Shown: piece by piece, positions 9,570 through 64,000 of the stretch
How the letters are laid out: every line of letters starts with the position of its first letter
Position numbering within the stretch: the stretch's first letter is position 1
NCBI GenBank assembly: GCA_036172245.1
Contig: JAYWIR010000020.1
Coordinates: 1,984,001-2,048,000, forward strand
DNA: 64,000 bases
Source of the DNA: Raillietiella orientalis
Lineage: Eukaryota
Direction: 5' to 3'
Notes under the pieces: generated by a model
Seen by the model: only the letters and a program-made list of their open reading frames with translations
Told to the model about the DNA's origin: nothing
Database searches by the model: none
Made by a program: the position numbers and the translations under genes

Positions 9570-10999
9570 AATATCTTCTATTTATGCTCCTAATTTTTTT
9601 CTAAATCTTGATGGCGTCTACGCTTGTTTCATAAACGTTCATCAGGACGCCGCAAACTTGCATTTCTACTTCCGTAGGCAAGCAGATTTTCGAAAATGCC
9701 GAAATCCAGATAGGGAAACTATCTTTCATAGAATCTACAAACAACAAACTTACGTCAAATAATAGATCTTTATTTTAATTACAAAGCACTCTTTAATTGA
9801 TCGATCTACAATACACATTGCAGTTGTTTTTTACGTGAAGGTGAACGTGCGATTCCAGTCACGTGTCTTTTTGGCAAACAGCGTGTGTAAAATTTAAAAT
9901 GAATTTCTTTTGTTTATTTCGAAAATCGTAGAATCATGAAAAAACTAAAGGAACTTCCCATCATATAGATTATAGGAAATTCCCATCTATTTTAACATTT
10001 CACTCGCCTTAAATTTGTTAAAACAGGTATAACTGTTTTTCATATAGCATCTTTTCAAACAATCTTTCAAAATAAACGTTCTTTACACTCTACGATTATC
10101 TCAGAGTTTAGTTTTGGAGTTTCCAATAGAATCTATATGCATATCGACTTGCTTAATAAACTTCTCTCTATATCTTGATTATTAATAACGATGATCTTGC
10201 AAAACAAAAAAAGATATTTCATTGCTGTGTTGCTGTGGTCATGTATATCATTGTAATTAGAAAAACATCAAAATAATCATTTTTTTCTTCTTTTTAGAAA
10301 AGGCAAGGGTGATTCACAAACTTTTCTTTCCCACTTGAAGGTGTATTTTGTTTTAGAGTAAAGTGCCAGGCATATCTGAAGTAACAGCTTTGCATCACTC
10401 GTTTGTAGATGGTTGTGGTTTCTAGAACACAAAATGTCAAATCATACAATACATTGGTATGCATGCAGTGTTTTGTAGAAAGTTTGCAAATAGGAAAGGA
10501 CACAAACAATTAGTCAAATACTGCTTCGGAGCTTCCACTGAAATCACGAAGGCATTCATTACTATATCATCTGAAAAGTAACTAGATTATTATGCATCTT
10601 CACAAGATCAGCTCGTGTTTTTTACTTTTCGAAAGGAGTTTTTCTTTAGGAACCTTATTTAATTCAAGCACGTCATGTACATACATCTAAACTGCCACAT
10701 TCATGTGCATTTTTTTCAATTGATACAGATCTCTTGCCAATGTGGAGCGTTCCAAGGTCTTGAAAATGTACACTTTAAACAGGGAGGGAACATCAGAAGA
10801 AAGTGTACTATTCGTTTTATATTTTTGCGTGTAATAATTTATCATCTGTTGTAAGGTAGGCAAGAATAAGTCATGTTTATTACAAAAAGTTAGTACATGA
10901 TTGATAATTCATGGACGCAGATTAAAAAAAAAATTGCATTTGAATAACATAAATGATGGAAAAAAAGATAGCTAAGTCTCTATTGATTATACTTACCAA

Positions 11000-11700
11000 A
11001 ATACACTGATTATATTCATGAAGAGCATGTATTAGCTCCTATTTTTTCATAAACTAAGAAAAGGAATGTATTCAGAATTAAAAAGAGAAATATTGAAAAG
11101 CGAATTAAATGAATATCACTGGACAATTTGAAAACAAAAAATTGAGGGTGTTCGATGAGTACAACCAAAGCTAGATTTGAAGCAGTCATTTCTCACACTA
11201 TTGAATAAGCCTAGTAGTTTTTTGAAAACACGAAAAACATGACCTTTTTCAAATGAATGACGAAAAGCTTTCGAATGACTTCATATTGCTTCATGAGCTT
11301 CCGTAAAATCGTTGAGACAAAGAGGGGGCTGCTATATTTAAGTTAAGAGATGGTTGAATACCATGTTTAAATTTATGTTTTACATGCGTGTTCAAATACA
11401 ATTCTTTACAGTGATCCAAAAAATAAAATACAGCAGTACTTTTGAACCTAAAGTGCAAGCATTTTCCTGAAGTGGCGAATAGAAGCGAGATCTTAAAGAG
11501 ATGAAGAGTGGCGTAGAGTTTATGGACTGAAGAGAAGGAATTTTCACATAGATGATACTCCTAAAAGTGCGAAGCAAAATCAATCAAAATCATGTTGCAA
11601 AATGAACAACATCTCTTTCATTCTGAACAATGGCCGAAGGATTATAACAGAAAGCAAAAGCAAGAAATAAACTTTGTGAACTAAGGGTTGTCGCAAGACA
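11000..11700 (-). mobile_element. Highly decayed non-LTR retrotransposon RT fragment
   Basis: Minus-strand KYSSPLFVSTILRKLMK (~11,300-11,340) resembles the NYRPISLxSxxxKxxE motif; many stops. Confidence 0.35.
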
Positions 11701-11829
11701 TTGCAATAAGAAGTATTTCACACTGTCTTCAAGGCAAATAATACCCTCTGATTACTATATGAATAATGGGTTCGGCTTGGACTATGGGCATTAGGTATCG
11801 GTCTGCGGTGTTCTACGCAAAAGTTAGTT

Positions 11830-13310
11830 TTCCTTCGCCCCCTGCTTTTTGTTTGCCTCCCCTCTCCAGCCAGCAAGGGAAGGACTGAGGGCCTCCTGAG
11901 AAAAGCCCTGTGGGGCACACGGAGGTCTCGCGTCTGCTTGCAAGACTTGTGAGCTCCGCGTTGGGATGGTAAACTGGACCCTCTCACGATGGAGAGGATA
12001 GAGAGTCAGCTCCAATTCAGAAGGCTCACCCTCGCGGCGGGGGTATGAACCACTCTCTGGGGAGCTCCAGTACGGCTCTTCGCGAAGAGAGCAACCGGCT
12101 GCGAGGGGCTGCCTTCGGTCCTCGTGACCAATCATCAACCAGTTTGAGGTATTGTGGTTTTTCAACTGAGAAGCATGATTGCCTTGGTGGAGGGGAACAC
12201 CTGATCTTGAATATAAATTGTCCCTTCAATATTTTCGTCTATTTCACGATCATCAAAATCTCCTGCCTCCTCGCGAACTACACTGCTCGGCTCCAGGAGT
12301 CGGTCTTCGCCTGGGGGAAGACCCACGGCACGAGCGAGGCGAAGTGAGCCCACCTGCAACGCTCGCAAGTCTTCAGAGATGCGATGGTCCGCAACCCGCT
12401 CAAGATGCGGTGGACCTCGTCTACTCCCCTTGCCCCAGTGCTGCCCTACCTCCTTTAGAGAACAAAGGGACGACGTTGTCCCCTGCAAGATGGGAAGTGA
12501 CGTGCTGCACTGCGGCCGCAAAGAAAATTCCGGGTGTGCACACAACTCGGGAAGTGACAGACAGCTGCGACCCCGAGTGTCCCTCCCCAAGGAGGACTTG
12601 TGCATTGGGGAGAGCTGCTCGGCATCCCTCCGGAGGAGGTGGAGCGGCCCCTAGCGTTCTGGGGCAGTGGCGCCCTCTCCCTCAAGTGGCCGAGTCGGCA
12701 TTGCTGGTGGTGCATGGGGGAATCCCGTGCAAAGCGCGCCTTCACCAGTGGATACGGAGGAGGGTGGATGCTCAAAGTGGGCTGGTGCAGGAAGAAGGGG
12801 ACCCTCACGTCCCTGCTGCCGAACTGCGCTGCCCTCCGACCCCTTCGGGATCGCCTCGAGGCGACCCTAGGAATCTCGGCGGGAGACCCAAGGGACATTT
12901 TCAAGGTGAGTGCCGCACTGCCTCCAGCCGCGACATTCTGCAGCCTTCGCGGGATCACAGCGGCTTGGAACGCCGGAAGAGGAAGCCGAAATTGTAGGGA
13001 CACAATCCACTGGGTGCGGATCTCCCTGAGGACCGCCTCAAGATGGTCCCACCTGGGGCGAGACACGGACGGAACTTGCCATCACTCTGAACAGAATGCA
13101 GAGGACGCCTAGCAGCGTACTGTACCCCTCCCCCCGTGTACAATTTCCCCTCCCCCTGTTTTTGTACGTCATTTTTTTTGTTTTTGTTTTCCCTTCCTCC
13201 ACACTACCAAAGCGGACCTCGCCGGTCTGCATGCCGCTCTTTGGAAAGTTCCTTGCAGGTGGTAGGAGCAACGGTTCCCCCACACCAATGGATTTTCATT
13301 ATTTTATGTA
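11830..13310 (+). mobile_element. 5'-truncated L1/Tx1-like LINE: RT C-terminal half, zf-RVT zinc finger, 3' UTR (degenerate)
   Basis: SPLLFV-like motif B (~11,830), SLRYCGF (KYLG-like), IKISCLLANYTARLQESVFAWGK, and WCRKKGTLTSLLPNCAALRPLRDRL (decayed CxxC..ET..H....C). The 3' UTR (GGACCTCGCCGGTC) is shared with copies at ~18,160 and ~39,175. Confidence 0.8.
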
Positions 13311-13429
13311 ATGAATGCCCCAGCATAACCAGGTGATATCATCCTAGGCCAATAATAACGACCTCTTCGTGAACCCACTGCTGGTTTCGTTTTCAAACAA
13401 AAGAAGGAGAAGAAAATCCGTCTTCATGA

Positions 13430-13696: not shown

Positions 13697-16099
13697 CTGC
13701 AAAATTGGATTAACAGCACGTAAGACATCAAAGCATATCTCAAGAAAGACAAAGCGACGTGTTAAAGGTTAGAAACATGCGCGAGTCAAAGGATTGCAAG
13801 GGAGTCGAAGCGAAAGTTCCACTTCCACACCCTCATTTCTTGCTCTTAGATTTTCCAGGAACAGAACAGAATTCCTCAGAGTAGAGAATAAAGCATTTCA
13901 CGAACGAAGACGAGAAGATGCACGACATCTGAAACCATGCGCAGCCTCGCAGCCTTGCGCTTTGGTCTTCCGCGAAACAAGCGATTCAACGCGTTTCTTG
14001 GGAAGGAATCTCGAAGAGGGGAATTGTATTTCATGTATACCCAGCACCTTTGGAGCCGTCGCTCTTCCGCTACACGTCTGTCAAATGCAAAATTTATTTG
14101 TTTTCGTCGCAAATTTAGCGTTTCTTTTTCTTTTCTTTTGTTTTTTTTTCTTTTTCTTTTTCGGAGAAAGTGGACTGCATGCATCTTTGACGCACAATCC
14201 GTAATCAGGCTTCCCTTGAACTCTCCAGTTTCGAAGGTCAAGAAATCACAACGAAGCTATGCTGTCGCCAGAGCACAGTCCAGAGGATTCGAATGTTCCA
14301 ACGTGCGGATGGATGGCAATGGATTCGAAAGCACTGAATAAGAAAATTCGAATGATAGAAGAACGAAGCTGCGAAGATTGGTAAGCAGGCCAACCAAGTT
14401 AAAGAAAGGGTGAGATGGACCCAATTCAGCTCAAACGTGGAGAACGGTGTGAATCGTGCTGTCCTCAGAGATGAGAGATGCAGTTGCAGGGGACCGATTT
14501 TCATGAGTTAAAGGAGGAATGGAACTGTAGTGACCGAAAATAAGACAATACTATGATTGCAGATTTTCCAAGACTAATCCAAGCGAGGCAAAGTGACAAA
14601 GCAAAGGAGCAAAATCCCGATTGCATCACGCTAAAATGTGAACTTTATGCGCACCATCATGAGGATGAAACAGAGCATGGACCCCTTTCGTTCATTCATT
14701 ACATTCATTAGAATCATTAAAGAGTCGAAGCAGTTTTAGTGAGTGAGCACACCTGAAGCAATAATAAACTTGCCGTGAATCCAGGATTAGGATAAAAGGT
14801 TGGTGCTCTTCCCCAGAGATGTCTCTCAACTGGGGTACGAATGAATCAATTGATGTCAAAAGAACGGCCAAGGCTTACGTTCGGCTGTCTTTATGCGTGA
14901 ATGTCATGGCGAAAATTTAACCACATTTTCTTGGATCCCCGAGTTCTTTCGCTAGTGAAGGTTTTCTCGAGCATCAGTAAGAGCAATCAGCAAGAAAAGC
15001 TGGAATCACAGGCAGGAATGCTTATGGGGTGAGAAGCATCGTCCCTCAATGACGTATTTAAGGAAAATCTCAGTCGGCGCGGAGTGCAGTTTAGGGATAC
15101 TCGGAGAAAAGCATAAATTCTTGACAATCTCGAAAGCATAATACCACGGAAAATCCCCAAATGTGTTCTTCTCATCTTTTCCATAAAAAGGTATATCTCT
15201 AAGCAACTGCTACTAAAAGACCGACACGATTGTTTGCGAGGCAGCTGGCATTTTTCAAGAGTGTGACTAGAAATGGAATCGTGCGCACAGAAGCCAGGAA
15301 GGAAATCCCCGGGCCAGAGATTCCGATGGAGTCTTTGAAAAATGTTTGCGGGAACAGCGATCGCTTTTCCTTTCGCCTTGAATACGTCGTGGTTGAGATG
15401 TGTTCTGAGGTTGTAGCTGGGGTTTCAGTGCTCAGGAGAGGAGTAAAAGTCTGGCAATCGCCCCTAGGAGATCCAGGATTTTTATTCCTGGATATCCTAG
15501 ATTGCGAGCATCAGTAAGATTTCAGAGGGTTCTCGTCCCTCGGAAAGATGGTCAATCGAATGTTGCACAAACAACGCCTCATGCACGCACAAAAGCACAC
15601 ACAAGAAGAAGGAGAAGAAGAAAGAGAAGAAAGTTCTCCGGACTGCTCAGGAAACTTTCTTGTCCTTTTGTTGCCTTTGATTCCATACACAGAATCCTGC
15701 AGGAAGAAATGGAAACGAAGTATCCCGGCTCACAGGAAGGACGATTGAGCCCCGCGAAATCCCACTGATGAGCGCGAGATTTTGGATCGGCGGCTGGGAC
15801 CAGGTTCGTGCAGAGGTAGGTTACGCCTTCAAGACTGCAGTGAAGTGCAACTTCGAACTCAAAGAGGGGCGTCAAGAAAGACGACGGGGCTGCTCGGAGA
15901 GGGAAAAGGAAAGGATGAAGAACCTCGAAGCTTTTCATTGGGCATCGAAAGAGAAGAAATCGATAGCTAGAAACGGAAGTCGGTCTTTGCTTCTTTCGTA
16001 TTTTTTTTCTTCTTCTTCTTCTGATAAATTGGAGAGATGGGGAGGAAAAGCTGAAGGAAGCTCGTTTTTACAACTACAGATGTGCTGCGCGGGAGATGC

Positions 16100-17150
16100 G
16101 GAGGCGAAAAGGGAAGGTAGACTCTTGCACAAGGCAAATCTCGATCCCTGCATTCGCCTGGACCTAATGGACGAGGATGTCTGCTCCCCGGACCAGAGGT
16201 CGAGAGCAACTGAAGCAACTGAAACCGTGGAACCCAAGCCTCGGGTCGAGAGGCGCCATGTGACCAGCTGCAAACCTGCGCGGCTCAAACAGCTCGTGGG
16301 TTCGTTCCCAAAGGTGCACGAAGGCGCCTGGGTTGATTCCACCTCGGACCAGCCGCCTGGCACGCGCGACAGGCAGGGGCGCTCCTTTCCCAGTGGTCCA
16401 CGAGGAGGATGGATCTTAGCCGATCGCGCAAACCACGAACGGGAACGGGACGGAACGGAAGAATTCGCTGCGAATCCGCGGAACGGGCAAAGAGGCGCGT
16501 TCCGTCCTTGGCCCGTGGGAAGAACTTCCTGCGGACGGAGGAAACGTCGGCCGAATCGGGAGCGACCTTGCAAGGCTGTCCTCGCGTTCCCTCAAGGGCC
16601 GAGTTTCAGACCAAAATGGCGGAGGAGAGCCTCCTTCCACCCACGACCGGGGAGAGAACGCGAGCACAAGAGGTGACGTGGCCGCGAGCGTGACCTTGAA
16701 CGTCGAAACGAACCTGGAGAAGAACAAGCAAACAAACAGACATAAAGGAGTGCCTCCTCGGTAAGGAGAAGAGGACGAGGAAGAAAGGAATGGTCTTCGC
16801 ACGAGCCCTCGAGAGGGAAACTAGGAATTCGCATTGGAAGGCGTTGACAAGAGGAACAGAAAGAAACAACAGCTGTTGCCACTGGATGGAGGATTTTTCT
16901 TGGCTTCTGCGTCCCGAGACGGCGGGCCTTCATTGGCGTTTGACCTTCTCGCGCATGTGAAACAGGCAGAGATCGAAGCTGCCAACTCCTTGTCTCCCAG
17001 CTCTCTGTAAGACAGGCGGGATCGAGGAAAGTGCGGTCGTCAGGGTCCAAATGCAAAAAAAAAACGAGGGAGGAGGGTAATCCAGGAATCCTGGACAAGC
17101 GAGAAACGACCATTCGTTTCCAGTAGCGGAGACGCAGTCGACCGTTTCTC
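16100..17150 (-). mobile_element. Degenerate LINE ORF2 APE-endonuclease region
   Basis: Shares GGATTCCTGGATT with the endonuclease start at ~52,830; RGPG.W.N-like segment near 16,350; heavily frameshifted. Confidence 0.45.
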
Positions 17151-17389: not shown

Positions 17390-17735
17390 ATCTACGGTCT
17401 CCGTGCGGGGTGGCACCGAACGTCACGGGTTCGAATCATGCCCAGGGAGGGATCGAGACACCGAGAAATAGGAGGTGCGTAGTCATGAGTTTCGTGTCGC
17501 TCCCCCCCCCGCAGGATATGACGCTGGTTGGCCTTACGGGCTCCGGGTGTGGCGGCACCGGTGAAAGCAGTCCCGCTGATCGGCCGGGATTGGAAGTTGA
17601 CCGAAGTCCTTCCAGGACATCAAGGAGTCCTTCAGGATTCACCTCCACTTGCACAAATGGAGCCGCCCATCTCGTACAGTGGAGGAAACCAGGAGAGGAT
17701 CTTTTCTGGGGAGTCACTTCGGAGATAAAAACATG
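17390..17735 (+). mobile_element. tRNA-headed SINE-like repeat, copy A
   Basis: B-box-like GGTTCGAATCA at 17428-17438; body GGATATGACGCTGGTTGGCCTTACGGGCTCCGGGTG nearly identical to 50,245-50,280. Confidence 0.7.
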
Positions 17736-18069
17736 AGCTCTGATGGAAGTAACCAACCGGCGAGGTGTCATGAAAGACATTCGATGGTTTGGCTTCCCAG
17801 GATGGCTTGGAAAAAAAATAAAAATAGAAAAGAGACATCTGCGTCGTTTTTATCCCCCCCCCCCCCCCCCTCGAAAAGGACTTGGAAACCCAGAGCGATT
17901 TCCTGTCTGTACCGCTCTTGCAAAGATCGAAACCTCTGCATTTCCCCTTGGAAACAAACTACGTCCGTTGCGTGTCTAAGAGATGCGGATCACCTCCTTC
18001 GTATCTCGTTTTCGCCAGCGGCTTTCCTTAGAGTTGTCGCTCGGATGCACCGGAGCATTAATTTGGTAT

Positions 18070-19980
18070 AAAAATAAATATTCACCATTTTTGTGTGGTA
18101 GGACCAGTGGTCCAACCACGCCCATTCCAAAGAGAACCTGCTGGGTAACGGGTACGCAGACCGGTGAGGTTCTCCACGGCAGCGGAGGAGAAGGGGAGAA
18201 GTCAAACAATCAGAAAAATAAGTAAATAAATAACCTTGGAAGGGTGCGGGAAGGGATGAGGTCCTGCTGCGGGAGATCCTCTGCATCCTTAGGAGGATGC
18301 CGGCAAGCTCTTGCTGCACGCAGTCCTTCAGGTGGCGCCATCTCGCTGCCATCCTCGTGAAGCGGACGACGAAATGGATGTGTGGCACTGGCACCCCTGC
18401 CGCTCAGTCCTCCTCTTGCGAATCACTCCAGGCAGCAACGATTCCGCGCAGACAGCAGAGGGCTGCAGTCGAAGGAGACCGCGTAGGAGGAGGGGTCGTA
18501 AAGGTGGTAAAGCGTCCCTGGAGTTGCCGCCGGAGGTTCCTAGGGTCGCGGCAAAACGTTCCCAGAGGGGCCGGAGGGCAACAACGCAATCCACGAGCAG
18601 ATGAGGGAAGGATTCGTGCTTTCCGCACCTGCCCCAGTTGGGATCCACCCGTTCCTTCCCAATGTCCAGTGATGCCGGCGGACGTTGCATGGGAGACCCC
18701 AGTGCAGCAGCAGCAGCGCCGACTTCCGCCACTTCAAGGGGATGGTGTGTCTGTCCAAAAGCACTGAAGACCATTGCAGATGTTCCTCCGGAATATCCAG
18801 CAGCTCGCCTCTGAGCAGAAGCCCTCGTAGGGGTGGGGACTTGTGGGGAGTCGCAGCGTCTGTGAGCTGGCCCGTCGTCCTCTTCATGCCGTCTTCTTCT
18901 CCCACCGGAGCTTTCCATGGATACCTCTTATCTTTTCGGAATGCTGCTGTCTGGGTGTTCCCTCAGGGAGGGCAGCGCCGCGGAAAGGGAGGTTCTTCCT
19001 ACGCACGCTCTTATCCCAGGATGTTCGAGGATCTCCCGGAGCGAGCAGCTCCTGTAAGGCGCCGCAAAGGAATGCAGCCGGGCATCGTTCTTGGTTCCTC
19101 GCCCCACGTGCGAACGGTTTCCTCCAGCCAGGCATTACCGTTCGCAGGGAAGCAGGAGATCTCGGTATCGTCGGCCCTCGTGAGGGTTGCCACCCGCTGG
19201 AGCTGCAGCTCGCAGTAGGAGAGGCTGCGTCGAAAGCTTCCCTTAGAGAGGGAGAGCAGCATTTCAGATAGGCAGTTGCCCTGGCATCCGACGTCAGATG
19301 AAGCTGCGAGTTAAATTTTCCCTTTGCACCCAGCTGGTCGCACGAAACAGCGAAGTTTTCAGAATTTCAGCCGAACCGCGTGCTTTCTTTGCGGCGGCGA
19401 TTCATTCTTCGGGGCGAATGGTGAAGACGATGCGGGGCTGGGCGCACTCGCCCACACACTCATCCACGGTAGCACCGACGTAATCTCGTGAGTTGGCGGG
19501 TGGGATTTCGCATTGCGATAACAGCTCCACGCGAGTTCGGTCTTCGGCTTCGCGGTTCCTTCGCCTTGAGACTTTGTCGTATGAGCTCGGCAGGTGCGCT
19601 CATGGAGTCTGAGGAGAAGGACAGGAGGATCGCTCACATGATCTCCCCCCGCCCCCCACTCTCTGCCCTTGGTCAGAGAGAGAGAGTTGACTTGTTCGGC
19701 AGCCCTTTCGCCGCCGTATCTATTTCCAGCCTTTCGGAACTTTCGGTAAATGGAATGAGGACATCAAGCCAAAGGGTACTTGGATGGGAGGAGAGAACGA
19801 CTTGTGCGGACTCTTCCGGAGAACCGAATGAAACCTGCGAGCCTCAGCATGTATTGAACCTGCGGAGGAATCGCATACCCGTCGAGCGTGGGGCGCGACT
19901 GGCTGGCAGTGCGGACGCAATGTCATCTCCGAACAAAAGTACCGAGCAACCGGAACGAACGTGCACGCCATCTTCCGCTG
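18070..19980 (-). mobile_element. L1/Tx1-like LINE 3' half (RT catalytic region, zf-RVT, 3' UTR), degenerate
   Basis: VLLFGDDIAS (YADD-like, ~19,930), FLRRFNTC*GSQVS, TEISCFPANGNAWLEETVRTWGE, and VDPNWGRCGKHESFPHLLVDCVVALRPLWERF (zf-RVT). Homologous to 11,830-13,310. Confidence 0.85.
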
Positions 19981-19984
19981 TTGC

Positions 19985-20700
19985 CGTTAGCTTGCTCCAA
20001 GTGCTGAAGAACCGTTCACCGCCTTGGGGGGGAGGTCATTGAGATCTTTCAAGGACTGCCCACGACCACCCGAGAGTGCGCGGATCTCTTCAAGATAGGG
20101 GGGGCAACCCCGTAAAGACCACTCTATGGACCCTACGGGAACCTTTCTCTCTTGCTCTTGGTAGGTAGATCTTCTGAACCCTTCCAAATTTTCTCCGAAG
20201 GGCTCTTCACGCAGGCAGCAGCGCGCTTCTTGACATTCTGGAGAGATATCGATCCACCAGCTCCAGGGAACGCGATGGAGGGTCCGCCTCCGGAAGGAAG
20301 GAAGAAAAGGGGTGGGGGAACGCCTCCATTTTCACAACCTTAGGGAACCAACCGGTTTCTCCCTGATTTCTGGAAGGACCTCGGAGGATCAGCTTCCAAT
20401 CCCGGCTGGTCAGCTGGGACATCCGTTGACTGGCCGGGATTGGACCAAAGTATTGGTATTAATTCATAAAATCATCCAATTAGCATCGGATGCTACACTT
20501 TGATCCAATCCCGGCCAGTCGACATCCGGTTTCCGGCTGCTTCCGCCAGCACCGCATCCGAAGCTTGCAAGGCCAGCCAGCGTCATCTTGCGGCCGGTTC
20601 CACTTAACACTGTACCAGCGGTCGGCCCATGTCCTGGTTCCTCCGCTCGTGCCCGGTTCTGTGTCCGGTCCGTCGGCAGTCTTTCCATCTCGTGGCGTCC
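19985..20700 (-). mobile_element. SINE-like repeat body, copy B (no recognisable tRNA head)
   Basis: GATGACGCTGGCTGGCCTT..., CCGGGATTGGAAG...GGTCCTTCCAG and CGGTTCTTCAGCACT match copies at 17,510-17,640 and 50,245-50,970. Confidence 0.65.

Positions 20701-22887: not shown

Positions 22888-22888
<1 letters not shown>

Positions 22889-22936
<48 letters not shown>
22889..22936. repeat. (TG)24 microsatellite
   Basis: Direct reading. Confidence 0.97.
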
Positions 22937-26224: not shown

Positions 26225-27043
26225 TTACAGTAACGTGAGTGGGGAGTCACAGTAAGGTGGAGACAACAAAGGGAGTGCAATGTAGAGTCTACACTTAGGG
26301 AAGTTATTTCTTCTTGGTTGTTCTAGTTGATTACCGTGGGGGTGCAGAGGTTCTGGGACGAGACCAGGGTGCAGGGGCAAGGCGGCTTTCAGCTGCTGGT
26401 TCTTCGGGCTCAGACTCGGACTCACTATGTTCGCTTGAGTTCGCCCGAGTTCGTTACGAGTAGTGACACCTACGTGATGGTTGCAAAGCCACCACAAGGC
26501 TTTAGTCGCCACAATTAGAGCCAGCATGTGCCGTGCAAGCTCATTGTTCTGATAACCATTGACTATGTTACACTGATCTGGGTTCAGTTCTATGTTCACT
26601 TGACTGAAGAACCAGTCTTCGTCGGGTACATGCTGCTCATGTTTTTTTTGAATACGTAATAATCCGTGACTAAAAAGCGCATGTAGACCAGTGATGAAGT
26701 ATTTCTTGAAAGTAACCGATGCTGAGTGTGTACTTAAGTACCACGCACAAGCCAACGTAAACGCCATCTTCCAGGTTGCGCCGCGTACGTAAAATACAGG
26801 CATGAGCTTCGCATCAGCACCAGTAGTAGTGGAGGGAGTAGTAATTCCGACTTCGACGTCTCCATCTAAGGGTGGCAGTGCAAAAATGAAGCTGGCATTT
26901 ACGCGCAGCATAGCCGCTTGCTCCTCGTTGAGAGGCTCTATCATATCATGCCGATCTCGGATGAAGAATCGTTGGTTTTGCTGTCGTTAAGCAATCGACA
27001 GAGCAAGTTCTCGAGATGAACGGCAGACTCTGAATCGTCTCAT
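26225..27043 (-). pseudogene. Endogenous viral element, probable qinvirus-like (Qinviridae) nucleoprotein
   Basis: Intronless 239-aa ORF (26,225-26,944) that extends upstream in frame through one TAA (26,987-26,989) to an ATG at 27,043. Contains LIVATKALWWLCNHHVG, matching the ATKx(N/L)WWxxNHHxG motif I recall from qinvirus segment-2 proteins; no LINE motifs inside. Confidence 0.6.
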
Positions 27044-28300: not shown

Positions 28301-29097
28301 ATTCCTGCTGCCGCTTCGAAAGACACGTGGACTTTAATGGATTCACAAATCGAGAGCTTTCTTTCAGGTTCTTCTCTTTCGGGTTAGGAATGGCATCAGT
28401 TCCCTTTGCGGCTTACGATTGCATCAAGATATCAGGTAGCCAATGCATGCAGATGAGTAAAGACGGTGGAGGCTGCGAATACGTTCTTCGGGTTTACACA
28501 TGGATGATATACATAGTATCTATAAAAGATATGAAGTGTATCTTGAACGTTGTATCAGCAGAATGTCTATTCTTTCGCCTCAAGACCAAAGAAAACAATT
28601 AAAGTTTGATTTTTTTTTTTACATTTGAGTCAGTTTTTAGCTTGCAGCTTGGCAAAATGCAACGCAACAGGTTTTCACGGTGCCTACTGTGTTTCTAGGG
28701 CTTCTATCACAAGCGCATCTCCCTGCACCATTCGATTCGTCCTTTGCCAACTTTTCGCATTCGAATCGTACAGAACAGTTTGTTGCACTTTCCTTTCTTT
28801 CGAAAGGGATGGATGGAGGGAAGGATTTCTTTTTGTCAAGTTTCGCTTAATCCCGGAGTATCTTTTTTTAAAAAAAAAAATCCCAAGAGGCCTTAGTTAT
28901 TGACTGGAAGTTGCGATTCGTGCTCTCCTACGCTCCCTGAAGTCTCGTCGCGAAAGTATACGCTGGGAGAAGTGCACGGAGCGCACATGATTCCTGGCAT
29001 TGCACGTGAATGCTTCGTTCCTCCTGGGAACATCCTGTCTTCCACCCAAAGAAGCCTCTAAGCCTCGGTGCTGAGCGTGATTCACGTGCTTCCTTAA

Positions 29098-40560: not shown

Positions 40561-40571
40561 AATAGTGGATT

Positions 40572-53900: not shown

Positions 53901-56900
53901 GCCGTTCCGATTCGTGGCACACTCTGCAGGAAATCTGTGTCTCGGGCGTGGTTTCGAGGGACCGAATGAAAGGATTCAAACAAACAAACGCGCGCACACA
54001 CACAAAAAAAAACTCCTTTTCTTGTCCTTCACGAAACATCAATCGAATTTCACTCCTCAAAGCAACAAAGACCTGGACTTTTCGCCTGCATTTTCATACG
54101 TTTGAGTTCCGCGACATTCATCGATACGTCAGGACGCCTGACGACGTTCTATTTCGTATGCTTGAGACTCTTTGACCTATCGCGACCTGGTATCCGTGCT
54201 TGGACTGTCCGAACAGAACGCTGTGAAGCCTCGGCAGCGTCGAAATCTCGGCACGACCACTAACAGACTATGCAGGGACGCGCGCGCACCTCACCCACCC
54301 CACCCCTCTCTCTGCAGCAGTGCGACGCGTGAGAAGGTTGCGGTCCATCTCACTCTTTGCTCTTCCACGCGTTGAGTTCCCTCTGCAGACGTTTTCGGTT
54401 CGAGGAGCTCCTCCGAAGAAACTGGAATTTCGAAAAGAGATCCGAACCTGCGGATGCCTGCAAGGGATGCCCTCACTCTGTCTACGTGTCCCACGGGCGG
54501 CGAGACGATTTTTCGGAATCGCGTTACCCACCGAGCAGCATCGTCGTGAAAGTTCCCCTCGCGAACGCGAGGAAGGTGCGCTGGAAGGATGCGTGTTCAG
54601 CGGCGTCGAAGCTACAACCACCCATTCATGCCACTGCCATACTATTCTAAACCGGAAGAGGTCTGAATTCACATTTCGATACGGAAAACGTGATAAGGAA
54701 AGAGAATGCGCAGAGACGGACGACGACAAAGCCTCCGACGTATTATCTTTCTACCCTGAATCTTTCGTGGATTCGGTTGCACAAACGTGTAGGTCCTCTT
54801 ACACGATTGCAGAAAGGGAGGGAGGCATCTTAGCTGTAAACAGGGGCTTTGCCATCGAACGTGGCGATTATCTACGCATGCAATTGGGACTGACGAATTT
54901 ACTGAAGGGCTGCTTTATACGTTGGCTGGCTGTTTCGACAGTCGAATAGGCCGTAGGAATCATTGCCGAAGACTTTCAGGACCAGCCTGCGGAGACGCCA
55001 ATCGGACCTCCACCTCGCCGTTTTCAGGCAGCATCGCCTTCGCATCTCCGTTCGAGTCGGAAGCATTCCGGTGAATCCGCAGAATGAGAATACAGTGGTA
55101 CCTCGGGGCACTCGTCGGGAATTCGCTCTGGAACTCGTGACGAGTGCTGAAACCGACGAGTACAGGACGAGTTCCTTTCTAGACTTCGGGGTATCATTTT
55201 TAACCATTTTAGGACCCAGGATTAACGCTTGAAATGCGAAGAGAGCAAAGAAAAGGAGAGGATTCGAGAGGCCCCCTATAAGGAAGTGTTCGGCACCGTT
55301 CGCGAGCTACCATGAGATGAAAGCATCCACTTGTTCCATCATGAGAGCGGGATTCGAGTTTCGAGCATGCGCCGCCAAGTGTCGAAACTTTTTTCCCTCG
55401 TCAAAATGCGACGAGTACTGAATCTGACGAGTTCTGACGCCGTCGGGTGCCGAGGTACCACTGTACTTGAATCCATTCACGCCAGCAATTCTACAGAGGG
55501 AACCCTTTGCTTCTGGTCCCCTTGCCTCATCAAACCTTTCCTCCCTCCCTCTCTCTCTTTCATTCTGTTCTTCAGCCTGTAGGCTGCCTCTTTTGATAAC
55601 CGGAGAACGTTTCGCGTAATTGGGTAGGATCGTCATCACCGTAGTGATCAAAAACGAAAACGAAAAAAGAAAAGTCAGCAAAGGGATTTTTTTGTCATCA
55701 CAACTGTTCCGCCAGCACAGATGACCGAAAAACAGCAACGGCCTACAAGCGTAGAATCTGTCTCCTTTTTTTGAGCACCGTAACTTTTCTATCGTAGAAC
55801 TTCTGTGGAAGGAAGCTTCTGATCTGGAGGGTGCAGCGCTTGTGTTTAGGTGGCAATCATGTTTTATTTATCCTTTCTCCTTCTTCCTTGCTTTATGCTG
55901 ACATCAGGAAAGATTCCATTCATGCGACATTTAAGATGTGCCAGTTGTTTACCTTTCAGCTGCCGATGACCCCTTTGCGACCACGTTCAAACAAACCCCA
56001 GGGAGCCCAGTGCATCCACTACAGCTTGGATTCCCTTTGAGGCGCTTAGAAATGCTGTGAAGATTGTAAATTATTGAATCGCTCTTCCTTGGAGTATTTG
56101 GGAATTTCGATTTAGATTCGGAGAGATAGTGTTCGAGACATTTGGATTTGGCGCACGATTTTTTGCTTTGTGTGTGTGTATGTGTGTGGAACTGTATTGG
56201 GTTTTTTTTTATGTCATCACCGTGAATGAGAGAGCGAAATTGTCTATCCGGAGTTCGAGACGGCTAGGTAAACGTTGCTGGGCAACTGAACATTCAACCC
56301 AGGTCACGGCAGATTACGCGGGGAGCGCGGAAAAGATTCCAAGTTAATCGCAATTTTGCGAAGACGTGCCTCGGCTCCGTACTTGCGTGTATGAGCATCT
56401 CTGTGGTGATGAAAGTTGAGGAAATCAAGTGAAGTAACTTGGTTTCCTTCGATCTCACTGAGCGAAACAGTTTCTTGCCCGTACGGCTTGCGCTTACGAA
56501 CAACGTAAGCGAAGTGAAGCGGGGGAATAATTGGAATTGGAACGAAAAGAAAGAAAAGAAAAAAAAACACGAAGCGGGAATCATCGATTAGAGCGAGTTG
56601 TAAGCAAGTTAGTGGAGTCGAAATGGGACGGTGTTAAATAGTCAAGGCGATCGCAACGAGCCGAAATGTACCTCGTTGCTGGGCGTCACTAGGGGCGTTG
56701 CCTTCCTCGTGAACCGAATGAAGGATTGAGGAATGACCGGCAGCACACGCTTCCTTCATCTATGGCCCGAGAATAATCGGCAACAAAGCGATATCCGCGC
56801 AACAATCATGTTCGCAACAATGAGCGCGGAGTGGAACGACCTCGATCCTCCTCCATTGTTGAGAAAACGCAACTGCCTCCTCTGCTGGTCAGACGGGGCA

Positions 56901-57291
56901 CCAAGGGCAGAGCCACGAGGAACGCGTTTCTGCGCTGCCCTCCTAGAGCTAACACGGAGGCTGGGAGTCGCATTCGCATTCCGTGGGGGATGGGGGATGC
57001 GGAGAGCAGGAATGACGCGCAGGTATCCAGGACGGAGCCCGCAAAAAAGCAAAGCGCTTACAGGAGACGAAGCGATCTTGTAGACGTTGATCCTCAGAGT
57101 TCGGTTGGTGGCTGCCATCCCAGATCTGAAGACCTGCTCGTTTTGCATGTCGCTGGTCGTAATCATTCCAGGCAAGACGTGATTGTGCAGGACATCTTCG
57201 ATTCTTACCTCGTCGCCCATGACGTTCTGCAGAGTGGCCAGAGGCAGCAGGGCGAATGCTTCGTCCGAAGGGGCGAAGAAAGTGAACGGCC
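44991..57291 (-). CDS. Fasciclin (FAS1) domain protein, TGFBI/periostin/midline-fasciclin-like; 3' five exons only, upstream exons not resolved
   Basis: Phase-consistent GT-AG exons 57062-57291, 49316-49460, 45517-45666, 45318-45443, 44991-45121 give two FAS1 domains. Domain 1: GPFTFFAPSDEAF...VLHNHVLPG...LRINVY...TVNG...PNGVVHIIDGILFP. Domain 2: GPGPFTVFAPVPQAF...LLYHVVPG...ATVNEV...DIPATNGVIHLIE. Confidence 0.9.
46600..48200 (-). mobile_element. Degenerate LINE ORF2 (endonuclease C-terminus to RT N-terminus) in a FAS1 intron
   Basis: EIPRLGPGKNR (RGPG.W.N-like), then LLLPRLAKSGKDVNFSFFRNWKRFPLC (PKxGKD...NWRPISL-like). Confidence 0.55.
50105..51000 (+). mobile_element. tRNA-headed SINE-like repeat, copy E, with duplicated head
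   Basis: B-box GGTTCGAATCC at 50155-50165 and GGTTCGAATTCC at 50759-50770, each preceded by CTCCATGAGGCTGCGGTC; body homologous to copies A-D. Confidence 0.75.
52330..52860 (-). mobile_element. L1/Tx1-like APE endonuclease N-terminal fragment
   Basis: SWICFAGLG...RRWDGKIFLEIL...QWSTAVWSSLGAARRGVLVL resembles SWNVRGL...KR..+F..L...W...WS....RGV.+L. Confidence 0.65.
53100..55600 (-). mobile_element. Two or more degenerate LINE RT N-terminal fragments
   Basis: KGSFPDGIHRVL...LAIFVHQ (KxPGxDG...L..+F) near 53,380; MVKNDTPKSRK and CGFTGMLPTR (Q.GF..GR-like) near 55,070-55,200. Confidence 0.5.
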
Positions 57292-59699
57292 CTGCAAAGA
57301 TGCAGCAACATTGGCGGAGGTCCGCGGGCTGACTCTTTCGACAAGCGCGACCGACCTCGAGCATCCTCCCCTACGTGAGAAGGGTCTCTCTTTCCCCTCA
57401 GCTTGACAAGTGCTTGGCAAGGTCATTCCTCGCTCGATACCGGCGGCGTGAACGAGCGATGGTGTGGGGGGAGGGGGGGGGGTGTAGCGACGAAAAGGGT
57501 GGTCATCGAGTCATGCTAGGGAGCAGATCACGGAAAGGGAAAGGTGTAAGGAGGCGGGAAAAAGATGAGCAGCCGCTTCATCTCTCAGACACCTTCGTAA
57601 GTACTTTTTTGGAGCTTTGGAAAAATTCCGTGAGATGGTAAGAGCAGCGCTTTCCCAGGAAGGACTTCCCTGGACTAGCTCCTCTTCACGTGCATGAAGG
57701 CTGGGTGGGTGGTGGATCAGGGGTGAACAGGTGACGCCGGTTTCGTGCTTAAGAGAAGATCCAAGACTCCAAGATCTAGTGTAACAAGAGGTGTTGCCGC
57801 ATCTCCGGAAGCTTCTGGAGAGACGCGGCGACCGTAGCGATTCCGGCCGGGGTGAGATGCTCCGAGCCAACAAGGAGAAGTGGCTTCCGTGCCCTTTAGG
57901 AGAGAGAATCCCTCCTCTCCCACTCAAAGAGTCACCTCTTGTGTCCTGGAGGTCGCGACGCCCGGTGCCAGCTGGAGGTCTCAGCCTGCCTGCGACGCGA
58001 GGCGAGGCTGCTCAGTCAGAGGGAGGAGGGAGGGAGAGCGCTGGGTGGGGCGAGGCGCAGGAAGGAGGGCAGCAGCTCGTCTCTCGTCGGGTTTCAGCCA
58101 GTGAGCGAGGCGGAAGGAGAGGATGAGAGGGGGAGGGGTCCGGTTTGCTCGCGCACCTGGGAGCGCCTCTCTGGGACGCCTCCCGTGAAGACTGGGGGGG
58201 TTCCCTTCCCGGGAAAACTTCGAATGCGCGACGACGCCAGTCCTGAGACGCGAGTGTTCGTTCCCCAGTGCTTGCGGGAAGGCCACGCTGCGACGGATCC
58301 CACCGAACCGGCTCCTTACTTTTTTTTTTTCCCCTCTTCTCCTTCCTCCCCAGAGGGAACACGAAATCACTCCGCGTCGTCGGGAAACGGCTGGACCTCC
58401 TTTCTTTTCGTCCCCTCGCCAAACCGAAGGTCAAGTGCGGGTCAGCGTACATGGCTCTACAGGACGTCCTCTAAAGTCATCTCTCCCTCAGGGAACAGAA
58501 CGCGAGCCACTCGAAAGGCAGGGAGAGAGGAACGCGAACCAAAACTTTCGGCCATTTCAGCACTTTGCGTGATGCAGAGGAGGGAGCGGCAAGGGCACCA
58601 AGGCGACGGCATTGTTGAACGAGGGCATTGTTGACGCCTGCTATTTTTGGGGCTGCGACCGAGCTTGCCCACAAATGCACAGTACTCGCTAGCTCGACGC
58701 ACCTAATGGTGTAATACCCGAAATTATTATTATTATCAAAGGTGAAAAGATGGTTGGGCTGCACTGCTGCTTCGTTTTCTTCCTTCCCATTCTTTTCGTG
58801 CTTGGATTTTTTCTTGAAGGAAGTCGAGGATGCCGTCAGCTACAGACTCACGCCTGTGAGGGACAGGGATGCCAACTGACTACGCACGCGCGAGCTCCCG
58901 GCATTTGTCTCCACATCCTCTCTCACTTTTCACATGAATCTCACAATCTCCCCGGTTCCTCCTCTCGTCGTTATGACGACGACGACGACGACGTATGAGC
59001 GCACGACGATTCACCATGACGATGGCGATTCCAGTCCATTCACGTATATGATCAGCCTTCTGCACGTATGACAAAGGCACGCATTCTCGGAACTCTGGGA
59101 ACCATTTCCAACCATTTCACCTCTTGAATTCTCGTGCAGTCCTGTGTGTATATGTGTGTGTGTGTGTGTTTTCTTCAGGTACGGGTCAGCGAAGTTTGCA
59201 AGCACTCATGGGGATTGCATAGGTAGCGCTGCATGTCACTTCTGGTGCTCCTGGACGGTACTGGATTTGATTTTTTTTTTTTCGATGGTGATCAATTCCG
59301 GTGTGCTAATGCTGATTGCTCTCGTTACCGGGGCTGCGCCAGCCACTTTACAACATCTAGTTAAATGCATGATTTACTTGAACCGCGGTCTTCTTTCATA
59401 TGAAATCCATGGCTTGTTGATCCAATTCCTATTTCCAGACCCATTGCGTGCGTTTCCCCGCCAGCTAACTGTCCAGGGACTTGGAAGTTGATTTCTCGTT
59501 CTCGGGTGTGCGATCCACTTTTATCTTTTTGCTTCTGTTGCTTCCGCATCTCGTTTGGAATTTGCTTCGCACCGTCACATTTCTTCCTCTCCGTGGAAAG
59601 CTCGCCATCGCCTCCTTTCTGTAAGCGACGCTTTCCTCTGGAATTCAGATGACGACCTCTCCTCAAACTCACGGGTGGCAACCTTACGCTTAAGCACGT

Positions 59700-62127: not shown

Positions 62128-62995
62128 ACGAAAACAGTCACTTGTTATCCTTCTGCATAGCGGAGAAACGCAGCTGAGATCTTCCCAGTATGCGAAGCAA
62201 GAAATGAGGAACGAGGTTTCCAATGGAGTCTGTAAAATTTTAATCTTGCATCTTCGATTGCATAAATCAGTAACGGTTTGTTCACACCGATAAAGCAGGC
62301 ACTTTTTGTGGCAGTTCTGCGCCGCTGGTGCGCATTCAGTTAAAGAACAGACGGTTTGTTTTTGTTTTTTCTGTCCCCCACCCACCCCATCTAAAGAACA
62401 ACTTCAAAAGCAAGTGGTGAGCAGTGAAAACAACTCGCATTGTGTGCTGCGAAGGTTCCGTCATGCAGAGTTTTCGTCCCACAAACATCGGAATGAAAGC
62501 CAACAGAAACCGGAAATGAGCAAGCACCCCCGGAAAAAGAAAACGAAAAGGTGTATCCTTCCTCAGGACTCGGTTCGTTTGCAATCACGGACTCTCAGAT
62601 CACCGGGGTGGTGAAAGGATTGTGTGTTCCTCCTCTCCGTCCCGGAAACGGTGCCGTAAGCGCGGAAAAACTTTAGCACGCAAACTGCAACGAAAAAGGA
62701 CGGGGAAACTGCAAGTTGCTGAATGGAGGGGGCAGAGAGACGCGGTGACCCCCGCAAGCAGCCACGGATTCTTGATGATGATTGAAATCAAATAGCAACA
62801 AACGTATCGAACTCGAAGATGCACACGCCCTTTTGTGTTCGTCTCCCCGTCCCTGGAACCTGAGGTGTACTCGTGCTGGCATCGTTCCTGATGAAACAAA
62901 TGGACTCGAAAGTTGAGATCCGTATCTTCTCTTCGACGAAACTGAGGCTGGAAACAATTTCTGGAAAGTATCACGGTGCGGCGCCGCGAACGGAA

Positions 62996-63028
<33 letters not shown>

Positions 63029-63409
63029 CAGAAGCCATCACTCAGAGTAACGACTTGGCGAAGAGGCGCACATTCCTCCTGATCCGGAAGGTCGTGACGA
63101 GCAGCCTGGAAAAAGGGAGAGCGGGCGCGGAACGCACGCGCGCCATCGGATTGAGCATTCGGACCCGTTTTTCGGCGGGACGGCTCCGCCGCCCGTGCTG
63201 AGAGTGAGGTGGGCACTTTGGAAACGCGAAGGAAGGGAGGAGAGGGGGAGGGAACAGAATGGTTAATACAGAGGATTTTCAAGAGATGGCAGGAAACCGC
63301 AGACTGACGAGCTCGTGCTGCTCACTCCTCTCATCAGGCACGCACCGCTCGGATAGAATCGAAAGCCTTAAACAGAAACAAAGTGTCAAGACGTCAAAGA
63401 TCTTTGCAG

Positions 63410-63490
63410 CATCACCATCACCACCACCATGATCATCGTCATCACCGCAACCATCACCATCACCATCGCCATCATCATCACCGTCATCAT
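63410..63490. repeat. Imperfect (CAT/CAC)n trinucleotide repeat
   Basis: catcaccatcaccaccaccatgatcatcgtcatcacc... Confidence 0.85.
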
Positions 63491-64000
63491 CGGTAGCATT
63501 ACTGCTCTTACCCAGGAACTCCGGATATAGGACTCCGGGTATCATTACTGAAGATTAAAGCATGAACAGCGGACATCCTTTATGAGAATGCTGTTGAGCG
63601 GAAAATAAGCCTAATACGTTGCCGGACTATTGAGATCCAGTGATTCACACCAAGAAATCCGGAGAATCGATGATGATCTTGAGAAAATTCTGTTGGGTGA
63701 TCGTCACGTTGAGGGTGAGCGTATCCCAAGGACGGGTGTGTGTTGCCACCTCTTCGAGTTCGGATAACGCAGGAATGAGCTGAGAATCCTCCCCCCCCCC
63801 TCTCCTTCCTCAACTTGACCGAGGAGGTTTCCGTGATCCCTGCTTTCGCCGGCTTTCGAGGACGTCCTGTCCTTCACGACAGGACCTTCTTCCGTCTCCC
63901 CCTGGTGAAACCAGCGTGGTATCAACTTTCACCCCGAGGTTGCAGCTGCGAGCAGCTGTTGGACTGCCGGAACGTGGGGTCGCGGGAGGAGACCATGAGA

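Follow-up and report, generated by a model that had tools for sequence, protein, structure and literature searches.

A qinvirid nucleocapsid-derived endogenous viral element in repeat-rich DNA between two host genes of an invertebrate-type animal

Introduction

What defines a piRNA cluster is the set of small RNAs that it yields, together with the precursor transcript from which they come; viral elements in arthropod genomes are a frequent source of small RNAs. In mosquitoes, such elements are described as enriched in piRNA clusters (PMC7161354; bioRxiv 10.1101/2022.08.22.504762). Drosophila flamenco and the flamenco-like 143-kb unidirectional cluster of endogenous viral elements (EVEs) of Aedes aegypti (PMC7161354) are characterized by a single long antisense transcript, phased piRNAs and a near-uniform orientation. 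For mosquito core clusters, transcription is reported to be driven by read-through from upstream genes (bioRxiv 10.1101/2022.08.22.504762). EVEs originating from nucleoprotein (N) genes of negative-sense RNA viruses form a related group of arthropod sequences, for which rhabdo-, chu- or flavi-like donors are commonly reported.

Here, we analysed a 64-kb stretch of DNA (the window) from a genome that is of the invertebrate animal type. A preliminary description had interpreted 53 kb of it as a strand-biased archive of LINE, viral and host fragments and thus as a candidate uni-strand piRNA cluster. Our tract resembles flamenco and the Aedes cluster in that it is repeat-rich and, at 12-45 kb, apparently gene-poor and that its viral element lies on the majority strand of one repeat family. 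In contrast to these loci, its orientation is mixed, a single viral element was confirmed, and a protein-coding gene takes up about a quarter of the 53 kb. Like the mosquito read-through clusters, it is located directly downstream of a conserved-type gene (fasciclin) that points into it, but read-through on the minus strand would here yield RNA sense to the viral element, whereas antisense arrangements are described as enriched in mosquitoes (bioRxiv 10.1101/2022.08.22.504762).

Results

The tract is bordered by two host genes, both on the minus strand, with the following exon pieces:

7132-8468, minus strand: NOPS and RRM exons of a DBHS (SFPQ/NONO-type) gene, SFPQ/NONO matches with E 5e-16
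57080-57292, minus strand: host fasciclin (FAS1) gene, Pfam PF02469 profile positions 24-91 (E 1.2e-13, best match)
49368-49478, minus strand: fasciclin gene, profile positions 88-123
45518-45646, minus strand: fasciclin gene, profile positions 12-55
45328-45447, minus strand: fasciclin gene, profile positions 55-92 (weak)
45039-45113, minus strand: fasciclin gene, profile positions 95-119

The fasciclin pieces are ordered and open on the minus strand and represent two FAS1 domains (the second at 45039-45646), the first of which is interrupted by an intron of about 7.6 kb. The FAS1 gene mentioned in the preliminary description is indeed present, and with about 12 kb (45.0-57.3 kb) it makes up about a quarter of the proposed cluster. 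The fasciclin gene runs towards the 12-45 kb tract and terminates near 45 kb; on the other side, the DBHS gene has its 5' end turned to the left edge of the repeat tract. The gap between the upstream fasciclin gene and the downstream DBHS gene (12-45 kb, about 33 kb) is GC-rich and contains 10 repeat copies and the viral element. When its read-through frame chunks were searched, no Pfam-detectable gene was found on either strand. A broken host exon had also been reported on the minus strand, and our read-through frame scan of 9-45 kb did not recover it.

The most solid signal in the gap is a viral reading frame:

26228-26986, minus strand: endogenous viral element derived from a qinvirid (S-segment) nucleocapsid gene, open ORF of 253 codons

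An exhaustive phmmer search with this ORF against 1.84 billion representatives gave 18 matches at E<=1e-3 (best 1.6e-8, 24-35% identity) and none at E<=1e-10. One of these matches was a hypothetical protein encoded on the S segment of Wuhan insect virus 15, a member of Qinviridae (E 8.1e-4); others were 'uncharacterized protein LOC...' entries with isoforms from one ant genome and one parasitoid-wasp genome. The ORF corresponds to the N-terminal 45% or so of the qinvirid nucleocapsid gene. Its homologous part covers approximately residues 30-181 (26444-26899) and retains the motifs LP..G..E.G, PDxDW and ATKA..W..NHH; the later PAGTH block is missing. When a family profile was run on the window, it matched this ORF only, and only with profile positions 5-265. 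The structure predicted for the ORF had a pLDDT of about 90 across residues 60-170, and in a BFVD fold search with this model the best 5 of 500 listed hits were all qinvirid N proteins (probability 0.91-1.00). Host genes and repeats adjoin the element in the same assembled 64-kb sequence, and other viral genes are absent nearby. Thus, the ORF is a genuine non-retroviral endogenous viral element of qinvirid N origin.

Like other arthropod EVEs from nucleoprotein genes, the element is a partial N gene (Qinviridae, Yingvirus-like) that lies in host DNA beside genes and repeats and lacks any other viral gene in its vicinity. It differs from them in its qinvirid donor and in its frame, which is still open for 253 codons. 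Among the papers listed by a title and abstract search, none paired Qinviridae with endogenous viral elements, which is weak evidence.

The open frame raises the question of whether the element may be a present or recent exapted host gene, the truncated nucleocapsid-like product of which would interfere with related viruses, a reading in which the repeats around it play no part. In neutral DNA, an open frame of this length would be improbable: the number of ORFs of at least 253 codons expected in 53 kb was 0.002, and this length was reached in 2 of 300 block shuffles. Moreover, a methionine at residue 15 is located just upstream of the position where the N-termini of the homologues align, relatives in one ant and one parasitoid wasp are annotated as uncharacterized proteins, and a translated antiviral element has been reported for Aedes albopictus (PMC13643977). 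However, homology ceases at about residue 180 and the final 70 or so codons are unrelated sequence, and a recent integration accounts equally well for the open frame. Judged from the sequence, exaptation appears distinctly unlikely.

The preliminary description had listed two RNA-virus nucleoprotein EVEs on the minus strand, one qinvirus-like and one from a chuvirus. The qinvirus-like element is the one described above, but a chuvirus counterpart was not found. The only candidate for it is the following pair of reading frames:

33085-33495 and 32852-33310, minus strand: two overlapping protein-like ORFs, unconfirmed candidate second viral element

Pfam and protein searches detected no relatives of these ORFs (32852-33495), their AF2 model reached a pLDDT of 44, and no Pfam family was matched in any frame of the region.

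About 15 LINE ORF2 fragments from several clades had been reported for the tract, and we were unable to reproduce them. Neither RVT_1 nor Exo_endo_phos nor any other transposon or viral Pfam family was matched by any of the 395 ORFs of at least 70 aa or of the 114 frame chunks, read through stops, that together span 9-64 kb of each strand. In six frames we counted four YxDD motifs, none of which was accompanied by an upstream RT motif. This search rests on Pfam domains and motifs, and decayed fragments outside Pfam domains would escape it.

In-window similarity defined 13 repeat copies in three families, a count to which single-copy fragments are invisible:

12248-13340, plus strand: family A, copy A1 (nhmmer, E 1.6e-61 to A2; described earlier as an 11,830-13,310 copy)
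18050-19167, minus strand: family A, copy A2 (nhmmer; C-x7-H-x4-C remnant in one frame)
39015-39961, minus strand: family A, copy A3 (nhmmer)
35745-35941, minus strand: family A, fragment A4 (E 1.2e-8)
40438-40631, minus strand: family A, fragment A5 (E 1.7e-8 and 1.7e-10)
17393-17789, plus strand: family BD, oriented as the 50-kb copy (E 1.9e-38)
50099-51003, plus strand: family BD, longest copy, within an intron of the fasciclin gene
40542-40721, plus strand: family BD, 3' part only (E 1.1e-9)
19981-20593, minus strand: family BD, inverted relative to the 50-kb copy (E 2.2e-17 and 3.4e-11)
36035-36466, minus strand: family BD, inverted relative to the 50-kb copy (E 6.1e-12 and 5.5e-11)
29092-29628, no strand assigned: family C, copy 1 (91-92% identity to 38352-38880, inverted)
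38352-38880, no strand assigned: family C, copy 2 (oriented opposite to copy 1)
35683-35748, no strand assigned: family C, 62-nt fragment oriented as copy 2

The unit of family A measures about 1.1 kb; in it, a stretch rich in T precedes a 3' region that is conserved. The copies share only 61-66% identity and are therefore old insertions. A zinc knuckle closes many LINE ORF2 proteins, and the C-x7-H-x4-C remnant of A2, the His of which is replaced in A1, resembles such a knuckle. This remnant is LINE-tail-like, and the LINE class of family A is putative. The T-rich stretch, the conserved 3' region and the knuckle-like remnant in one copy are reminiscent of the 3' ends of 5'-truncated CR1/L2-type LINEs. 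Unlike such LINEs, family A has no database relative that we could find, no RT or EN was detected anywhere in our scans, and the 5' limits of the three long copies (A1-A3) coincide within about 70 nt rather than lying at random truncation points. The longest BD copy carries two heads with the GGTTCGAATCC motif (tRNA B-box-like) on the plus strand. This head is reminiscent of the SINE partners of CR1/L2 LINEs, but Rfam gave no tRNA match for the family, so that the sense of BD is only putative.

When orientation was evaluated, the minus-strand bias with a single plus-strand exception, as originally described, applied exactly to family A (A1 plus, four copies minus) but was not general. Family A showed a minus-to-plus ratio of 4:1, BD a plus-to-minus ratio of 3:2 and C a ratio of 2:1 that is relative only; because of the BD and C distributions there is no significant overall bias. 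Among the elements with inferred sense, 7 of 11 were minus and 4 plus (two-sided p=0.55), and within 12-45 kb the corresponding numbers were 7 and 3 (p=0.34); with n=11-13 and an incomplete annotation, these counts have low power. Under any sense assignment of the families, at least 4 of the 13 repeat copies are discordant. Of the ORFs of at least 70 aa, 177 lay on the plus and 188 on the minus strand, and homopolymer runs of at least 8 nt comprised 17 A and 27 T runs (p=0.17).

Discussion

The structural premise of the cluster interpretation is weaker than originally stated, since no RT/EN fragment was found, no fewer than 4 of the 13 repeat copies lie on the wrong strand under any sense assignment, and a fasciclin gene of about 12 kb lies inside the proposed range. 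A viral N fragment among old repeats, in a 12-45 kb gap and on the same strand as four of the five A copies, is compatible with a cluster. If the 12-45 kb tract were a flamenco-like uni-strand piRNA cluster, piRNAs from a long plus-strand precursor would target the minus-strand repeats and the qinvirid N mRNA in antisense, and the promoter of this precursor might be located at about 10-12 kb, divergent from the DBHS gene. We consider this unlikely. The minus-strand location of the viral fragment, the old repeats around it, the gene-free gap, the 4:1 distribution of family A and the minus-strand majority of sense-inferred elements within the gap (7 of 10) would fit such a locus, and a divergent promoter is conceivable at the tract-facing 5' end of the DBHS gene. 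A precedent is the 143-kb unidirectional Aedes cluster, in which TE-EVE hybrids are reported on one strand (PMC7161354). However, the 7 of 10 majority is not significant, within the tract family BD is split between the plus strand (17.4 and 40.5 kb) and the minus strand (20 and 36 kb), and a Pfam search of the read-through frames found no RT/EN remnants there. Moreover, the core clusters of mosquitoes are reported to depend on read-through from an upstream gene (bioRxiv 10.1101/2022.08.22.504762). Within the window, only the minus-strand fasciclin gene is placed so that its transcripts could extend into the tract, and these would be sense rather than antisense RNA. That a uni-strand cluster at 12-45 kb, with a precursor promoter divergent from the DBHS gene, stores an antisense qinvirid memory in a non-mosquito invertebrate is quite improbable. 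To our knowledge, Qinviridae have so far not been linked to piRNA-based immunity.

Other kinds of piRNA source are also conceivable: the tract might be a dual-strand cluster, or it might be transcribed on the minus strand by read-through from the fasciclin gene. In the latter case, the piRNAs would have the polarity of the viral N mRNA and would thus be complementary to the negative-sense genome of the virus. The mixed orientation of the repeats fits a dual-strand better than a uni-strand source, the fasciclin gene, with its end near 45 kb, is directed into the tract, and a read-through mechanism has been described for mosquitoes (bioRxiv 10.1101/2022.08.22.504762). On the other hand, mosquito viral elements are described in the same source as antisense to the cluster transcript, unlike the arrangement that fasciclin read-through would create. 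This scenario appears very unlikely to us.

With a probability of roughly 0.6, the tract is most likely ordinary repeat-laden intergenic and intronic DNA in which one viral fragment was captured. It would consist of two parts, the gap of about 33 kb at 12-45 kb and the repeat-bearing fasciclin introns at 45-57 kb and beyond. Over time, three or more families of interspersed repeats, now old, would have settled in this DNA in mixed orientation. Reverse transcription of the 5' part of a qinvirid nucleocapsid mRNA would have supplied one copy, inserted at 26.2-27.0 kb, presumably by a transposon RT. The 4:1 layout of family A would then reflect small numbers rather than a one-strand cluster, and the tract as a whole would probably have no dedicated function. 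The viral fragment may yield some small RNAs, but this would not be enough to turn the 53 kb into a locus of the flamenco type.

Several points count against the ordinary-DNA interpretation. Within 18-41 kb, the minus strand carries four of the five A copies, the viral element and the unconfirmed 33-kb ORFs, and this arrangement resembles a one-strand cluster. In addition, a frame open over 253 codons is more than one would expect of a relic that is old and purely passive, and viral elements of mosquitoes are described as enriched in piRNA clusters (PMC7161354; bioRxiv 10.1101/2022.08.22.504762).

Taken together, the annotation does not support a 53-kb strand-biased archive, and the locus is best treated as repeat-rich DNA with one noteworthy viral fragment. 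The main solid result is a qinvirid nucleocapsid-derived element that is fixed in an animal genome and keeps a reading frame open for 253 codons. The related 'uncharacterized' genes of an ant and a wasp suggest recurrent capture of such genes. If the viral ORF is expressed, it would be another captured nucleoprotein in host use, and if plus-strand small RNAs exist, the mosquito model of a virus-derived piRNA memory would extend to another virus family and another host.

A qinvirid nucleocapsid element on the minus strand

The preliminary description had placed a qinvirus-like nucleoprotein EVE (endogenous viral element) on the minus strand, and our data indicate that this assignment was right, since a phmmer family, conserved sequence blocks and structural matches to qinvirid nucleocapsid (N) proteins all point to the same reading frame.

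26228-26986, minus strand: viral element, ORF of 253 codons (phmmer, alignment, fold match)

When this ORF was compared by exhaustive phmmer search with 1.84 billion representatives, 18 proteins passed E<=1e-3 and none passed 1e-10. With identities ranging from 24 to 35%, the matches aligned to query residues of about 30-181, and the strongest of them had an E-value of 1.6e-8. Ten of the 18 matches were looked up. One was a hypothetical protein of Wuhan insect virus 15 (1601-nt record), which is Yingvirus wuhanense of the Qinviridae; two were annotated as "uncharacterized protein LOC..." of Solenopsis invicta and Diachasmimorpha longicaudata, and the others were unnamed Logan/JGI entries. The LOC genes of the parasitoid wasp and the fire ant have two isoforms each, and in these Hymenoptera the same viral gene has probably been endogenized. 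According to the part of the ICTV profile used here (PMC10721934), qinvirids carry their nucleocapsid gene on the S segment (1.6-1.9 kb), and their hosts are crustaceans, insects, gastropods and nematodes.

In the alignment, the ORF retains the conserved blocks of the family, with K162, W166 and H170 being invariant. The homology extends to about residue 180, and the PAGTH block that comes later in the family is absent from the ORF. An AlphaFold2 model calculated from the alignment reached a pLDDT of about 90 at residues 60-170 (mean 62), and the top five BFVD matches of this model were all qinvirid N or putative nucleocapsid proteins (E 2.9e-3 to 7e-2, probability 0.91-1.00), with each match listed after these having a probability below 0.1. 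The ORF belongs to no Pfam family, and neither the ESM Atlas (no usable match) nor IMG/VR nor a word-based search, which is a weak test, returned a relative. Scans of IMG/VR with four ORFs returned no loci; in one of them a stretch passed tblastn. With the family profile, no other ORF of at least 25 aa in the window was matched.

The reading frame is longer than chance would predict. From its own composition, the probability of a 253-codon frame staying open is 6e-6, and the expected number of ORFs that long in 53 kb is 0.002. When 20-34 kb was block-shuffled 300 times, two of the shuffles contained an ORF of at least 253 codons (median longest ORF 142). This excess points to recent integration or selection and speaks for a coding element that was either exapted or recently integrated, a scenario that we consider quite unlikely overall. 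A 1.3-kb stretch immediately upstream of this element (27267-28599) carries seven overlapping ORFs of 107-209 aa, distributed over both strands; the 209-aa ORF (27624-28250) has no relative in Pfam, IMG/VR or PDB (E<=10 or <=1).

Base composition and host genes

The window contains no Ns. At about 11800-12000 the GC content jumps abruptly, from 0.29-0.38 in 1-12 kb to 0.41-0.58 in 12-64 kb (to the window end). The CpG observed/expected ratio of the GC-rich part is about 0.8-1.2, and a ratio near 1 suggests that CpG depletion is slight there.

For the Pfam scan, 395 stop-to-stop ORFs of at least 70 aa from six frames of the whole window were used (E<=0.01). Only two host genes were detected, a DBHS-type gene and a fasciclin gene, both on the minus strand. 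Further matches (Microcin, PGAP1_2nd, RRM_7) each remained under the curated cut-off.

Host gene features (Pfam)
6113-9581, minus strand: multi-exon DBHS-type gene (two RRMs, NOPS, coiled coil; SFPQ/NONO-like), AT-rich left part
7132-7356, minus strand: NOPS exon of the DBHS gene
7689-7910 and 8232-8468, minus strand: RRM_1 exons of the DBHS gene
57080-57292, minus strand: fasciclin exon piece, profile 24-91, E 1.2e-12 (read-through scan)
49368-49478, minus strand: fasciclin exon piece, profile 88-123
45518-45646, minus strand: fasciclin exon piece, profile 12-55
45328-45447, minus strand: fasciclin exon piece, profile 55-92, weak
45039-45113, minus strand: fasciclin exon piece, profile 95-119

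The NOPS exon matched human SFPQ/NONO/PSPC1 and C. elegans NONO-1 chains (E 5e-16 to 1.5e-11), and the 5' end of the DBHS gene points toward the repeat tract. The fasciclin pieces form two FAS1 domains, the first of which is split by an intron of about 7.6 kb. The minus-strand FAS1 gene that had been noted within the proposed piRNA cluster (10900-64000) was thus recovered by Pfam and stop-read-through scans, and since its pieces span 45039-57292, about 12 kb of that 53-kb range are a minus-strand protein-coding gene. The 12-45 kb remainder, here called the tract, sits between the fasciclin gene (3' side) and the DBHS gene (5' side).

Search for LINE ORF2, viral and host remnants

About 15 decayed LINE ORF2 fragments from several clades had been proposed for this region. 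In the Pfam scan at E<=0.01, the 395 ORFs yielded no match to RVT_1, to Exo_endo_phos or to other families of transposons or viruses. Because decayed copies may lack long ORFs, stop-read-through translation was used for 9-64 kb (six frames, 3-kb chunks, stops as X, E<=0.05). Here, transposon or viral families were found in none of the 114 chunks (57 minus, 57 plus), Pfam having no model of ORF2 downstream of the reverse transcriptase (RT), and fasciclin was matched in four minus-strand chunks. A ZIP transporter match (E 0.011, below the cut-off) was spurious and came from a His-rich CATCAC repeat. By motif search, the six frames contain only four YxDD motifs, two per strand, none of which lies 45-240 nt downstream of a QGxxxSP or SPxLF motif. 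Thus, the proposed fragments were not reproduced, and the one copy read on the plus strand (11,830-13,310) contains a Pfam domain in no frame. Ranking the ORFs by composition log-odds did not separate real from spurious ones and was dropped.

The preliminary description had also listed a chuvirus element, for which only one candidate is visible.

32852-33495, minus strand: protein-like ORF pair (33085-33495, 137 aa; 32852-33310, 153 aa), overlapping

These two ORFs, which are not unusual in length, had no relatives in Pfam, the ESM Atlas, IMG/VR, the word search (weak), the metagenome scan or PDB (E<=10 or <=1), and by profile search they fall outside the qinvirid family. A single-sequence AF2 model of 33085-33495 was unusable (pLDDT 44). 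Their assignment as a chuvirus-like fragment is unconfirmed and not refuted. A broken host exon, reported for the same strand, was not detected by Pfam read-through scans of the minus strand in 9-45 kb. Two long open frames (40788-41870, minus strand, 361 codons; 15681-16673, plus strand, 331 codons) exceed the simple stop-codon expectation; they are GC-rich, rich in Arg, Ser and Pro, match no Pfam family, and may be a composition effect or antisense frames of old coding sequence.

Three families of interspersed repeats

Self-comparison of the window (blastn, tblastn of ORFs, nhmmer) defined three repeat families, called A, BD and C.

Repeat copies
12248-13340, plus strand: family A, copy A1
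18050-19167, minus strand: family A, copy A2
39015-39961, minus strand: family A, copy A3
35745-35941, minus strand: family A, fragment A4
40438-40631, minus strand: family A, fragment A5
17393-17789, 50099-51003 and 40542-40721, plus strand: family BD (nhmmer)
19981-20593 and 36035-36466, minus strand: family BD, opposite orientation (nhmmer)
29092-29628 and 38352-38880, inverted to each other: family C, 91-92% identity
35683-35748: family C, 62-nt fragment

Family A has a unit length of about 1.1 kb, and A1 and A2 share 61% identity across 824 columns (nhmmer E 1.6e-61). Many LINE ORF2 proteins have a Cys/His knuckle at the C-terminus; a C-x7-H-x4-C remnant reminiscent of this knuckle is present in one frame of A2, and the block after it is also conserved in A1. 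The 5' limits of A1-A3 coincide within about 70 nt, no further homology was found upstream of them, and this pattern is not what independent 5' truncations would leave. The description of family A as a solo-LTR-like unit with a sharp common 5' end was softened, as A1 carries an insert of about 50 nt upstream of which homology resumes. No relatives of the family appeared in a word-based protein search (18331-18927, weak test), a metagenome scan or a PDB sequence search (E<=10 or <=1).

The 50-kb copy of family BD has two heads bearing the GGTTCGAATCC motif on the plus strand. ARAGORN detected no tRNA, Rfam gave no match at gathering scores, and an Rfam E-value scan of 50000-51100 returned noise only. 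The label "tRNA-derived SINE" was therefore reduced to "B-box-like motif", and firm conclusions on this family are limited to its relative orientation (3:2).

The family C copies are inverted repeats of about 530 bp, lie about 8.7 kb apart and enclose the ORF pair at 33 kb together with fragments from all three repeat families. The two copies may mark the ends of one large element, or they may have arisen by inverted duplication. A 19-nt tandem array (38938-39037, 5.3 copies) adjoins the 3' end of A3. Elsewhere there are a (TG)31 simple repeat (22876-22936), a CATCAC hexamer array (63410-63491) and short near-perfect palindromes at 41350-41390, 32841-32888 and 62996-63028, the last being a T15/A18 junction.

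Orientation of the elements

For the strand counts, the sense of family A was assigned by the knuckle-bearing frame and that of family BD by the B-box strand. Seven elements (the viral element, A2-A5, two BD copies) lie on the minus strand versus four (A1, three BD copies) on the plus strand, which corresponds to a two-sided binomial p of 0.55. Adding the unconfirmed ORF pair gives 8 of 12 on the minus strand (p=0.39), and for 12-45 kb only the count is 7 of 10 (p=0.34). The most favourable sense assignment gives 9 of 13 (p=0.27), and at least four of 13 copies are discordant under every assignment. Annotation-free proxies showed no asymmetry either, neither ORFs of at least 70 aa in 10.9-64 kb (177 plus, 188 minus) nor homopolymer runs of at least 8 nt (17 A, 27 T; p=0.17). 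The almost exclusive minus-strand layout previously described holds exactly for family A (one plus copy at 12-13 kb, the rest minus) and was not reproduced for the elements taken together. A real strand bias may be masked by the small numbers; none is demonstrated.

Discussion

Small RNAs and a precursor transcript are the defining features of a piRNA cluster. Viral elements of arthropods commonly yield piRNAs, as ter Horst et al. reportedly found in 2019. The parts of two mosquito studies used here offer models for comparison. Aedes aegypti has a 143-kb unidirectional cluster with one-strand TE-EVE hybrids, one long antisense transcript and phased piRNAs (PMC7161354), and mosquito core clusters are enriched in antisense elements and made by read-through from upstream genes (bioRxiv 10.1101/2022.08.22.504762). 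In contrast to these clusters as described there, the tract has one confirmed viral element and a mixed repeat orientation, and no RT/EN remnants were found in it. We regard a uni-strand cluster confined to 12-45 kb as unlikely. Transcription of its plus-strand precursor would have to start from a separate promoter at about 10-12 kb, conceivably one divergent from the DBHS gene. Whereas the mosquito core clusters are antisense-enriched, the fasciclin gene, the only gene placed to read into the tract, would yield sense RNA; a dual-strand source or one fed by minus-strand read-through appears very improbable to us.

In the best explanation, to which we assign a probability of roughly 0.6, intergenic and intronic DNA of an ordinary, repeat-rich kind would have taken in a single qinvirid N fragment. 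Among the literature matches listed, none combined Qinviridae and endogenous viral elements in title or abstract, and supplements may list such elements; the part of PMC11512250 used here reports only rhabdovirus-like elements. Taken together, the viral call of the preliminary description is correct and its headline claim is unsupported. Endogenous N-gene fragments in repeat-rich DNA are already known, and the present one adds a case whose donor family has rarely been reported.
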